A stretch of 64,000 nt of DNA from Chloroflexota bacterium. GTDB taxonomy: Bacteria > Chloroflexota > UBA11872 > VXNJ01. Below are positions 58,140 through 61,172 of the stretch, in pieces. Numbering within the stretch: position 1 is the first letter of the stretch; every line of letters begins with the position of its first letter. The DNA lies in contig OZ242304.1 in the NCBI GenBank assembly GCA_965207915.1, forward strand, positions 406,196-470,195. Reading direction: 5' to 3'. The notes beneath the pieces are model-generated. The model had not been told where the DNA came from. It was given only the letters and a program-made list of their open reading frames with translations, and searched no databases. Position numbers and translations under genes: made by a program.

Positions 58140-58390
58140 GGTTATTGGCCACCCCCAAGTCGCAACGATCCTGCATTCACCCGAGGACGCCCGGCCACGG
58201 CGGCGGCGATCGTTTCGCGCCTGTCTGGCAGGCGATTGCTACAGGTCGCCCGATTGTACGGGGGCTTATGTGGACGACTAGACGAGTCCCCTCATACACT
58301 GCCGCCGGCAGGCTCTAGCACATGATCTAACAAAGCGTATATACTTACGCCCCCATAACGGCATATGCACAACTCTGATACAGGGACTGA

Positions 58391-58564
58391 TGTCGGAGAC
58401 CTTCCGAACCTACCAGCAACGCGGCTACCTCTCGCGCCGCGGCTGCCAGCGCCTCAATCAGGTGCTGGCCGAATGCACCGACCTCTACAACGCCGAACTG
58501 CAGCTGTGGCGCCAGCAGTACAAGCAATTGTCTTTTTTGTCAAGTCCGGAAGGGGTGAGTTGAG
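58391..58564 (+). pseudogene. tnpB: tnpB 5' fragment (IS605 OrfB N-terminus, truncated by IS110 insertion)
   Basis: Encodes MSETFRTYQQRGYLSRRGCQRLNQVLAECTDLYNAELQLWRQQYKQ..., the typical TnpB N-terminus, ending in a premature stop at the IS110 junction. Confidence 0.6.
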
Positions 58565-60060
58565 TGGCGGTGCGGGGGAGAGCAGAGCGGGGAAGCCATG
58601 CGGTCGATCGCGAGATTTCCTGGGCCGTCACGGCCCGTTTTCATCGGATCCGCGACAGCTTCTCCGTTCTGGGCATGGCTGCGCCAGGGATCCTGCCCCG
58701 GCGGGGCGATCGACGGCGCCGGCTACCGGCGGTCAGCCTCGGCCCGCGGGCACGTCCCCATCCGTTATCCGATCCTCCCGGGCAGCGGCCTTCCCGCCCT
58801 CGCCGCGATCGGTCGTCGAAGCCTCGCCGACGACCGGGGACCATCCCTGGTCGGCAGCGCCGGCATCTGCTTGGGGCGGCTGTTCCGGGATCGCTTCTTC
58901 CGCGCGCCAGTACTCGCCGCTGCGCAGCATCGCGTTCAGGATGGTCAGCAGCTTGCGCATGCAGGCTGTGAGCGCTACCTTCTTGGGCTTGCCGGCCGCC
59001 AGCAGGCGCTCGTAGAACGCCCTGATCCGGGGGTTGTGCCTGGAGGCTGACAGCGCCGCCATGTAGAGCGCGGCGCGGACCCTGGCGCGTCCGCCCCATA
59101 CGAACCTTTTGCCCGAGTACTTGCCGCTGTCGCGGCTGAAGGGGGCCACCCCGACCAGGGCGCAGACCTGCTTGTTGCCCACCAGCCCCAGTTCGGGCAG
59201 ATAGGCCGCGAGGACGGCCACCAGCTGGGGTCCGGCGCCGGGGACCGATGCGATCAGGCCGGCGCGGGCCCGCAGGTAGGGCGATGCGGCGATCAGCCTG
59301 GCGATCTCCCGGTCCAGGCGCTTGATGCGGCGCTTTAAGCCGCCGACCGCCCGGCCGATGTCGGAGCGGACAATCCGGCTCCCAACCAGGCGGCGGCGGT
59401 TCTGCTCGGCGGTACGCTGGGCAACCAGCTGCAGGCGCCGGCCAGCCAGATCGGCCAGTTCCCTATTCGCCGGATCGGGCGCTGTCCAGAGCTGGTAGTG
59501 TCCGGTGGCGGCGAACCGGGCGATGACCCTTGCGTCGACCGCGTCGGTCTTGGCCAGGACGCCCATCGCGCGGGCGTAGTCGCGCACCTGGCGGGGGTTC
59601 GCGATCGCCACCGGCAGGGACGCTCCCGCCAGCATCTCGGCCAGGGCCCGTTCCCAGCCGCCCGTGGCCTCCATGAGGACGACGGCGACCTCGAGCTCGA
59701 TCAGGCGCCCGATCAGCTTCCTGATCCCGGCCCGGGTGTTGCCGAACCGCTGGACCGGCCCCTGCGGCCCGAAGGCGGCGTCGAGGTGCTCGGACGAGAC
59801 GTCGACGCCTACGAATACGGGGGCGTTCACAGATAGACTCCCTGTAACTTCCCGCCGCCTTCGATCCTTCCTCGCAGATACGGGCTCCCGACGGGCCCCT
59901 GGCAATTGTTCGGATTGCGGCGGCGGGTTACCGGGTGCGGCGACCACGCTTGACTTCGGTCTCTGCGGATCAAAGGAGAATCGGTCTACCGCACCCGGGA
60001 CTTCCCGTAATCAAGATACGAGGAGACTGGCAAGAGCGATTCGCTGTACGAGCGCATGAA
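58565..60060 (-). mobile_element. IS110-family insertion sequence (~1.5 kb)
   Basis: Single IS110-type transposase ORF; sits exactly between the two tnpB halves. Confidence 0.65.
58733..59830 (-). CDS. IS110-family transposase (DEDD)
   Basis: VGVDVS...MEATGGW... N-terminal DEDD domain and C-terminal transposase_20 HhH region (VPGAGP...); probable GTG start after ggga. Confidence 0.85.
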
Positions 60061-61035
60061 AGCATTCACGGTGACCCGCAACTCAGATCCTTTCTGGGGC
60101 TCCGTGTCGGTAGACGTCGGCGCGGAGTGCTGATCCGGATGGAAGAAGCCCGCAAGGCCTTCTACCGCCGGTGCCAGGCAGGAGAGGAACCCGGTTTTCC
60201 CAGGTTCAAACCTTACCACCGCTACCGCACCGTCCAGATCGAGCAGCCGACTCCGGCGATGGTCAGGCTCGATAGTCTCGGCTATGCGGTCCGGATCAAG
60301 GGCCTGCCGGTGGTAAGGCTCAGGACCAAGCGGTCTCTGCCGCCGGCAGCGAACTTAAAGACCATCCGCGTTACCTTCCGGGGACGCCGGCCATCGGTGT
60401 GCCTGACTTACGCGGTGGAGTTGGAACCTTTGCCGAAAAGCAGCTCCGGGGTCGGGCTGGACATGGGCGTACTGAGCCGCATTACCACCAGCGAGGGCGA
60501 GAAGATTGAACGCCGCCGACCAGACCGAGAAGACATCGCCCGCAAGCAGCGGAGGCTGTCGGCGTGCGAGAAGGGCAGCAACAGGTTTCGGAGGCGGCGC
60601 CGGGTCCTGGCCAACGCCCACGACCGGGCAAGGGTCAGGGACCGCAACCGGTGCCATGAGATCACCACCGACCTGGTGCGAAGATTCGGGTTCATCGCGC
60701 TTGAGGACCTTGACAAGCCGAAGTTGACCAGGTCGGACGGAGCAAGGAAGCGCGGTCTTAACCGCGCGATATTGGAGCAAACCTGGGGACGGATCACTCA
60801 ACAGTTGATCTATAAGGCCGAGAGCGCCGGTAGAGAGCTGGTATTCGTCGATCCCCGGTACACATCGCAGCGCTGCTCATCCTGCGGGGCGATGGTCAAA
60901 AAGGGCCTTGAGGAAAGAAGGCACGTATGCGGTTGCGGTCTGGACTTAGACCGCGACCACAATGCGGCCTTGAACATCCTTTACAAGGCCCTCGCGGGTG
61001 GGGTTTTGCCCGCGGCTGCCGGCGAGGCAGCGTGA
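59935..61035 (+). pseudogene. tnpB: tnpB body (RuvC-like plus Zn-finger; lacks its native N-terminus)
   Basis: ...FYRRCQAGEEPGFPRFKPYHRY...VGLDMGV...CSSCGAMV...HVCGCGLDLDRDHNAALNI OrfB_IS605 and OrfB_Zn_ribbon signatures. Confidence 0.8.
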
Positions 61036-61172
61036 ATGTATTCTGGCCGGCCGATGGTTGGTTATGTATATAAGCCCCCTTGTACGGCTGGCGATTTCCA
61101 ACTAAATCCAAGAAAACTGGCGAAATTGAACGGAAAATTCCAACGTCTACGCTCACCGTGCGGAATGCACCG

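Follow-up and report, generated by a model that had tools for sequence, protein, structure and literature searches.

An IS110 element with a candidate bridge RNA nested in a tnpB element with probable inverted-repeat ends in a Chloroflexota genome

How two mobile elements came to lie one inside the other, and by what kind of transposition each arrived, is the question raised by a locus near the end of a 64,000-nucleotide stretch of Chloroflexota DNA (GenBank assembly GCA_965207915.1, contig OZ242304.1, positions 406,196 to 470,195; this whole stretch is referred to as the window). Three open reading frames (ORFs) are found there, of 57 amino acids at 58390-58563 (+), 404 at 58733-59947 (-) and 366 at 59935-61035 (+). 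An original prediction, made from the letters alone, had proposed an IS605-family tnpB gene split by an IS110-family insertion sequence (IS). The nesting itself is an ordinary case of nested IS elements. As to its history, we favour with good confidence an explanation in which two unrelated mobile elements arrived at separate times: an older tnpB element bounded by terminal inverted repeats (TIRs) and a target-site duplication (TSD), and a recent IS110 inserted under the guidance of a bridge RNA.

The nesting was established by comparison with two contigs of Chloroflexota metagenome-assembled genomes (MAGs), L022 (GCA_034420375.1) and L023 (GCA_009835825.1), which were found via the TnpB protein P0241 and carry the orthologous locus. 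The gene order glycosyltransferase (GT), GT, plsY, tnpB, esterase, GT, Wzy is common to the window and both contigs, and their identity to the window is 99.9% over 55890-58524 and 99.3% over 60017-63500. In L022 and L023 tnpB is intact (382 amino acids) and contains no IS110, the locus reading CAGCAGTACAAGGAGACTGGC uninterrupted across the insertion point. This empty site confirms that an IS110-family element was inserted in tnpB. The tnpB element is common to the window and L022/L023 and is therefore the older of the two, whereas the IS110 is absent from both contigs with flanks that are less than 1% different, and its insertion is thus recent. The pieces of the interrupted gene and of the insertion are as follows.

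58390..58524, plus strand: tnpB codons 1-45 (MSETFRTYQQ...WRQQYK), the same as the N-terminus of P0001 and P0241 except for residues 2-3
58525..60022, minus strand: IS110-family insertion sequence, absent from L022/L023; 1,496 bp plus one duplicated CT core
58525..58732, minus strand: IS110 right end, 3' of the transposase gene, with an outward-facing TTGACA -35 hexamer at 58543-58538
58733..59830, minus strand: IS110 DEDD transposase/recombinase gene, 365 amino acids, GTG start at 59830, AGGGAG ribosome-binding site
59831..60020, minus strand: IS110 left end with candidate bridge RNA, 190 nt, from the fold and the guide matches
60023..61035, plus strand: tnpB codons 46-382, from the L022 alignment; 1-bp deletion after 60118

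The first piece of tnpB aligns to L022 up to L022 position 2635, and the insertion of 1,498 bp lies between codons 45 and 46, antisense to tnpB. The break is placed after codon 45 because the closest intact TnpB, P0001 (382 amino acids, 98% identical), runs WRQQYK-ETGKSDSLFERMKAF at this point. The tnpB parts had been predicted at 58391..58564 and 59935..61035; both are present, but 58525..58563 and 59935..60022 within these ORFs are IS110 DNA read through. Likewise, the IS110 segment had been placed at 58565..60060, which L022/L023 and the independent copies described below correct to 58525..60022, and deleting the former segment does not rejoin the gene. Even the exact excision of 58525..60022 does not restore the ORF: relative to L022 one G of a GGG is missing after 60118, and the reading frame runs into a stop behind codon 82. 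Excision together with the addition of one G yields a 382-amino-acid protein that is identical to P0241 at 374 of 382 positions, and only the two changes combined restore the ORF. The tnpB gene of the window is a pseudogene twice over, by the IS110 insertion and by the 1-bp deletion, and the proteins of 57 and 298 amino acids that were deposited for this genome represent fragments of the gene.

The 1-bp deletion is peculiar to the lineage of the window, as is a 57-nt patch (60420-60476) with 16 differences from L022, including compensating +2/-2 indels. The protein sequence encoded by this patch (residues 184-197) follows the paralogue P0001 of the same genome and not the orthologue, a pattern suggestive of gene conversion between tnpB copies. 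The 366-amino-acid ORF matches TnpB models only from residue 67 (PF01385 OrfB_IS605, PF07282 Cas12f1-like_TNB and, with 174 bits, NF040570 guided_TnpB). The intact P0241 aligns end to end with the ISDra2 TnpB (8h1j, 8exa; residues 13-371, E = 2e-26). It contains the RuvC motifs GLDMG, ALEDL and DRDHNAA and a CxxC...CxC zinc finger, the RuvC motifs lining up with those of its top-scoring PDB relative 9yyg, an AI-designed TnpB-like nuclease.

The limits of the IS110 follow from the empty site and from independent copies in L006, L010, L008/9 and L001-3, which are the same element or relatives of 77-89% identity. The use of other copies to define the exact ends had been suggested with the original prediction, and these copies indeed share the end bases and the CT core next to other flanks: CCT is followed by CGTATCTTG at one end, and GACAATTG is followed by CT at the other. 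On the plus strand the core is the AG at 58523-58524 and 60021-60022, which is CT on the IS110 strand. The ends have no terminal inverted repeats, and versus the empty site only this AG/CT is duplicated.

The transposase contains the domains PF01548 DEDD_Tnp_IS110 (5e-24) and PF02371 Transposase_20 (4e-18) and scores 216 bits against NCBIfam NF033542 (transpos_IS110; cutoff 140). Judged by its sequence the IS110 is a new element, the closest retrievable proteins being Chloroflexota MAG sequences. An identical transposase protein, P0251, and two variants of it differing by one residue occur on the 2.44-Mb source contig, and these at least three near-identical copies suggest recent activity. The C-terminal ~50 residues of the transposase form a low-complexity tail (window 58733-58890, minus strand), which is missing from homologues of 50-60% identity (311-325 amino acids). 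DNA conservation with the 77% relatives drops in the tail region and recovers over the last ~75 nt of the right end, where identity to relatives is 77%.

In IS110-group elements the left end encodes a bridge RNA, in which the left target guide (LTG) and left donor guide (LDG) are same-sense to the left target or left donor plus the core, while the right target guide (RTG) and right donor guide (RDG) are the reverse complement of the core plus the right target or right donor (PMC11208160). The left end of the window's IS110 is predicted to fold into two long stem-loops with an internal loop in each, according to a consensus structure from six distinct elements (minimum free energy -75.8 kcal/mol, z = -3.9), and the loops contain the following candidate guides.

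59982-59974, minus strand: LTG of loop 1, GAUUCUCCU, matching the target CAGTCTC-CT at 7/9 positions
59952-59949, minus strand: RTG of loop 1, CAAG, reverse complement of CT-TG, 4/4
59909-59901, minus strand: LDG of loop 2, ACAAUUGCC, matching the donor ACAATTG-CT at 8/9 positions
59874-59871, minus strand: RDG of loop 2, CGAG, reverse complement of CT-CG, 4/4

Among the six elements compared, RDG and RTG covary with donor and flank. The right flanks start with CTTG, CTGAA, CTTTG or CTTC, each in agreement with the RTG of its own element, and the RDG is CAAG instead of CGAG in L004, where the left end begins with TG and not CG. Cognate pairs of guide and flank matched better than non-cognate pairs, both for the LTG (2.78 vs 1.27 of 6) and for the contiguous runs of the RTG (4.33 vs 2.70). 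No Rfam family was found above threshold for the candidate bridge RNA. The left end also contains a -10-like TATCTT at 60018-60013, and the circular junction of right end (RE), CT and left end (LE) would read TTGACA-17 nt-TATCTT. Such a split promoter across the circle junction is a known arrangement in the IS110 family.

The insertion may therefore be pictured as in IS621. The left end would encode a bridge RNA, one internal loop of which would pair with the donor, that is the RE-CT-LE junction of the excised circle, and the other with the target CAGTCTC-CT-TG; the DEDD recombinase would swap strands at the CT core, which would remain on both sides of the insert, and the circle junction would assemble the promoter TTGACA-17-TATCTT. 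The expression of the bridge RNA and the recombination chemistry are presumed; the promoter that a circle junction would form and the at least three near-identical copies on one contig lend indirect support to excision as a circle and RNA-guided recombination. With flanks that are less than 1% divergent between the occupied and the empty site, this IS110 offers a clean natural example of target choice by a bridge RNA.

A weak full-length Rfam match was also seen at window 59848-60004 (+), antisense to the candidate bridge RNA, with the Xanthomonas small RNA (sRNA) sX15 (RF02234); with 26.6 bits and E = 0.14 it does not reach the gathering score. The sRNAs sX15 and asX7 of Xcv are complementary to each other and encoded on a plasmid, with 10 homologues in S. 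maltophilia (PMC3300014). The sX15/asX7 pair may thus represent the left end (bridge RNA) of an IS110, reported at a time when bridge RNAs had yet to be discovered.

The position of the insertion raises the possibility that this IS110 is a specialist, its bridge RNA being programmed for the conserved WRQQYK-ETG coding sequence of tnpB, as a parasite of a parasite. The target fits the guides at 11/13 positions, the IS110 occupies the same tnpB site in L007, which comes from another sample, and other relatives lie 0.3-2.4 kb from tnpB elements. Furthermore, an IS110 relative of 58% identity lies within another tnpB homologue (L004 ~502-3216, and L005). However, that relative has its own, different guides and is inserted elsewhere in the gene, in the zinc-finger region (equivalent to window ~60909, between the flanks GACGTGC-CT and CT-TCTAAC). 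L007 may simply be the orthologous locus, because its flank carries the L022 alleles; in L006 the same element adjoins moaE at an unrelated sequence. We estimate that ~180 sites per 2.4-Mb genome match the guides equally well, and IS elements pile up in other IS elements, where such insertions are neutral. We consider specialisation on tnpB unlikely: the insertion appears guide-compatible, and a dedication of the IS110 to tnpB is not demonstrable from these sequences. A general rule by which the IS110 clade always targets tnpB was also considered and rejected, since the elements of L003, L006, L008, L009 and L010 sit elsewhere. The IS110 relatives are often close to other mobile DNA (L001 4001-7087, L002, L003 1971-5300): in L001 the relative is 260 bp upstream of a tnpB element, in L002 it is 2.4 kb from one and in L003 it adjoins a DDE_Tnp_1 transposase gene. 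These neighbourhoods are consistent with IS nests in these Chloroflexota genomes.

Turning to the tnpB element that preceded the IS110, the outer limits of ~58250 and ~61100 given by the original prediction do bracket the whole of it, and its ends comprise the following features.

58254..58260, no strand assigned: left direct repeat TTGTACG, candidate TSD copy, identical to 61080-61086
58261..58389, plus strand: left end of the tnpB element; the left TIR consists of the first ~12 nt, GGGGCTTATGTG (58261-58272)
60993..61072, plus strand: 3' part of a candidate ωRNA scaffold, with hairpins 60993-61014, 61015-61031 and 61037-61072; overlaps the tnpB 3' end and the right TIR
61036..61079, plus strand: right end of the tnpB element, its terminal ATATAAGCCCC(C) being the right TIR
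61080..61086, no strand assigned: right direct repeat TTGTACG, abutting the right TIR

The 12-mer GGGGGCTTATGT at 58260-58271 is an inverted copy of ATATAAGCCCCC at 61068-61079. Read as a TIR, 58261-58272, which starts 129 nt upstream of the ATG, partners 61067-61078 with its 10 first nt perfect and 16/26 matches overall. A 10-mer inverted match exactly at a family-conserved terminus beside a 7-bp repeat is well beyond chance, and relatives show the same arrangement. The G5/C5 motifs to which the original prediction had drawn attention are thus real and mark the ends of the element, but they are TIRs flanked by the 7-bp TTGTACG rather than the subterminal hairpins of an IS200/IS605 element.

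BLAST comparisons with L018 (85.6%, the closest retrievable intact element) and with relatives of 70-75% identity delimited a conserved block from 58338 to 61079-61084. The block begins at 58338 with TATATACTTACGCC, the alignments to L018, L001, L016 and L004 starting at 58338-58340, and homology to all relatives ends at ...ATATAAGYCCC. A left boundary at 58338 was dropped once a multiple alignment of the upstream regions showed that the distant relatives have left ends of ~330 nt, which start with GGCGCTTACATACCTAAGTGCC (long left-end start GGCGCTTACAT) and whose start repeats, imperfectly and in inverted orientation, the right end ...GGCACTTTTGTATATAAGTCCC of the same element. The TIR match amounts to 15-19/26 in 7/8 loci and to 10/26 in L011. 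This reading also replaced an earlier idea by which the tnpB 3' end and right end occur once more, inverted and on their own, to the left of the element, for which the extended alignment was not significant (30/300 shuffles equal). The left end is conserved and non-coding over ~330 nt in L001 (5565-5893), L011 and L013-L016 (~2661-3000) and L004, while it measures only 129 nt in the window/L022 lineage and ~154 nt in L018. The longer version could be a promoter, a set of transposase-binding sites or another RNA.

The bases flanking the elements were compared at seven further loci, with the following repeats.

L011: GTAGATTC, 8/8
L014: TAATTGTC, 8/8
L016: TTATAAA, 7/8
L001: TAAAAGA, 7/8
L015: degenerate, 6/8
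L013: degenerate, 5/8
L018: none clear, 2/8

The same TIR with a 7-8-bp duplication, at least 7/8 flank bases matching, is therefore found at 5/8 independent loci, against a mean of 2.6 and a maximum of 6 (of 8) in a cross-locus control. The flank repeats are 69% AT in a ~65% GC genome. TIRs combined with a flanking duplication are characteristic of staggered-cut (DDE-type) transposition. Both features are lacking in IS200/IS605 and IS607 elements (PMC13565253, PMC3119063), and the tnpB element, which has both, is mis-filed when called an IS605-type transposon.

A further part of the original prediction was that the right end, at 61036..61100, encodes the ωRNA of TnpB. In the last 220 nt of ten elements, which were aligned for this analysis, three hairpins are conserved with 96.5% of cells paired and compensatory changes at 6 pairs; 0/500 shuffles reached the observed values and slid controls gave 29-61% pairing. 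The sense strand folds with -41.4 kcal/mol (z -2.1) and the antisense strand with -27.6 (z -0.4), and G·U pairs are frequent in the third helix. G·U pairs and sense-only folding speak for an RNA of the tnpB strand and against a DNA hairpin, and the structure likely fits an ωRNA scaffold, the expression of which is presumed. A conserved RNA-like structure is thus present at the right end, but its limits differ from the predicted ones: it extends from ~60993, still within the ORF, to 61072-61079, and the bases from 61080 onward would be the guide. The position of the guide is taken from the workings of TnpB systems (PMC10691335). Only 7 nt separate the end of the structure from the transposon boundary, and the guide would therefore be TTGTACGGCTGGCGAT..., beginning with the duplicated target; it would consist of TTGTACG and the next bases (61080-61099, TTGTACGGCTGGCGATTTCC). 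No Rfam family covers the right-end structure, Rfam containing no ωRNA model.

A 14/15-nt inverted match between CGCCAGCAGTACAAG (58510-58524) and CTTGTACGGCTGGCG (61079-61093) was also considered. One arm ends exactly at the IS110 insertion point, and the other, which would be the ωRNA guide, starts at the boundary of the tnpB element. When the reconstructed empty site was compared with the whole tnpB element, 82/300 shuffles gave an equal match, which is therefore probably due to chance, curious as its location may be.

The tnpB element would thus be a tnpB-only element of ~1,323 bp (58261..61079 minus the IS110) between plsY and the esterase gene, encoding the RNA-guided nuclease TnpB, with its last ~90 nt as the likely ωRNA scaffold and the guide from 61080. 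It would have been moved most likely by a staggered-cut (DDE-type) transposase supplied in trans, and not by the single-strand, hairpin-dependent TnpA mechanism of IS200/IS605. The kind of transposase is deduced from the form of the ends. The alternative that it is a canonical IS200/IS605 element of the IS1341 type, its G5/C5 motifs serving as subterminal hairpins for a Y1 TnpA acting in trans and its DNA transposing as a single strand beside a short target motif, agrees with the TnpB-family protein, with the label of IS200/IS605 accessory protein that NCBI gives to the orthologues, with the real hairpins near the right end and with a small palindrome, CTGCCGCCGGCAG, spotted by eye in the left end. 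It is nevertheless a quite improbable reading. Rather than two similar hairpins, the motifs are inverted copies of each other that lie right at the termini, the right-end hairpins with their many G·U pairs and sense-only folding point to RNA, and the 7-8-bp direct repeats around 5/8 independent insertions and the TIRs are features that IS200/IS605 elements lack. No 4-5-nt conserved motif precedes the left ends, and no short motif is shared by the left flanks of the 8 loci. No tnpA gene, and no Y1 tnpA Pfam match, was found beside tnpB in the window or in the related loci returned with gene calls (L011-L016 came without them); a Y1 TnpA could conceivably have been supplied in trans. That the inverted G5/C5 motifs and the TTGTACG repeats are unrelated to transposition, being a host palindrome (REP-like) or the remains of a second, inverted element end beside the left end, is highly improbable, for although an extended alignment of 58140-58345 with the right-end region was not significant (30/300 shuffles equal) and no inverted copy of the exact 12-mer was found in relatives at <=2 mismatches, a looser search finds TIRs of 15-19/26 that start exactly where inter-locus homology begins or ends, and the relatives each carry their own 7-8-bp flank repeat of a sequence that differs per locus.

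Several points weigh against the explanation by an older TIR- and TSD-bounded tnpB element and a bridge-RNA-guided IS110. On the side of the tnpB element, no empty site was found among the sequences retrieved, so that the TSD is deduced from the flanking repeats alone; L018 has no clear duplication (2/8) and two further loci have degenerate ones (5-6/8). Over its outer 78 nt (58261-58337) the left end is not significantly similar to this closest relative, and no partner transposase with matching TIRs, nor any more TIR copies, was found in the retrieved loci and viral contigs. On the side of the IS110, the second known site of the same element, in L006, matches the guides poorly (LTG 4/9, RTG 3/4), the inner hairpin of the target-binding loop is weaker in this lineage and the LTG is 1 nt out of register compared with relatives.

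The locus is flanked by the following genes.

57501-58139, minus strand: plsY, left of the tnpB element
Plus strand: Abhydrolase_3 esterase gene, right of the tnpB element

With regard to the original prediction that this is the only clear mobile DNA in the window, the analysis covered a self-BLAST of the element, which found no second copy, and Rfam and tRNA scans, which were likewise empty. A scan of genome contigs yielded relatives of 70-75% only, two metagenome pattern scans gave nothing or chance matches, and viral-contig scans gave nothing useful.

TnpB has been described in TIR-bounded DDE transposons, in the branches DDE-1 to DDE-6 (PMC10691335), with ISL2, IS630 and IS1031 listed (PMC13565253), and a 'solo TnpB surrounded by transposon ends' has also been described (PMC10691335). 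The 7-8-bp duplication does not fit IS630, ISL2 or IS1031, and the partner is therefore probably of another family. These three groups make duplications of 2-3 bp. ISL3 or IS1595-like elements, with 8-bp duplications and repeats starting with GG, are a possible lead. It is tentatively proposed, as a possibility to which we give somewhat less than an even chance, that Chloroflexota harbour a family of non-autonomous transposons, tnpB-only and TIR-bounded, of which the tnpB element is a member; they would duplicate 7-8 bp of their target and be mobilised in trans by a DDE-type transposase family other than those reported with TnpB to date (ISL2, IS630 and IS1031). If this is true, how an ωRNA guide starting with the duplicated target serves homing after cut-and-paste becomes a further question. 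OMEGA nucleases riding on DDE-type transposons are currently considered rare in prokaryotes, and a TnpB family that is annotated as IS200/IS605 and has TIR and TSD ends bears on how far such nucleases have spread on these transposons.

Compared with known carriers of TnpB, the element resembles the IS1341 group of IS200/IS605 in its single tnpB, which belongs to the full-length ISDra2-type TnpB family with RuvC D-E-D motifs and a zinc finger, in an RNA-like structured 3' end that reaches the transposon boundary, and in its multiple, diverged copies within the same genomes. It differs from that group by its terminal inverted repeats and 7-8-bp target duplication, by the absence of a conserved short target motif at its left end and of tnpA in the neighbourhoods returned with gene calls. 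With the DDE-transposon-borne TnpBs (PMC10691335) it has in common the symmetrical inverted-repeat ends around tnpB and a tnpB 3' end less than 250 bp from the transposon end, but it has no linked transposase gene. Compared with IS621 and the IS110 group (PMC11208160, PMC11208158), the IS110 of the window, which is known from its sequence alone, is distinguished by the ~50-residue low-complexity C-terminal tail of its transposase, by a donor loop in which 7 nt of the left-end start (CGUAUCU) recur in the same sense and by an LTG register 1 nt off that of its relatives. In all other respects compared it is like them: a DEDD recombinase with both Pfam domains, no TIRs, a CT core doubled upon insertion, a ~190-nt non-coding left end with two stem-loops containing internal loops, loop 5' strands that are same-sense to left target plus core and left donor plus core, loop 3' strands that are the reverse complement of core plus right target and core plus right donor, and promoter halves divided between the right and left ends.

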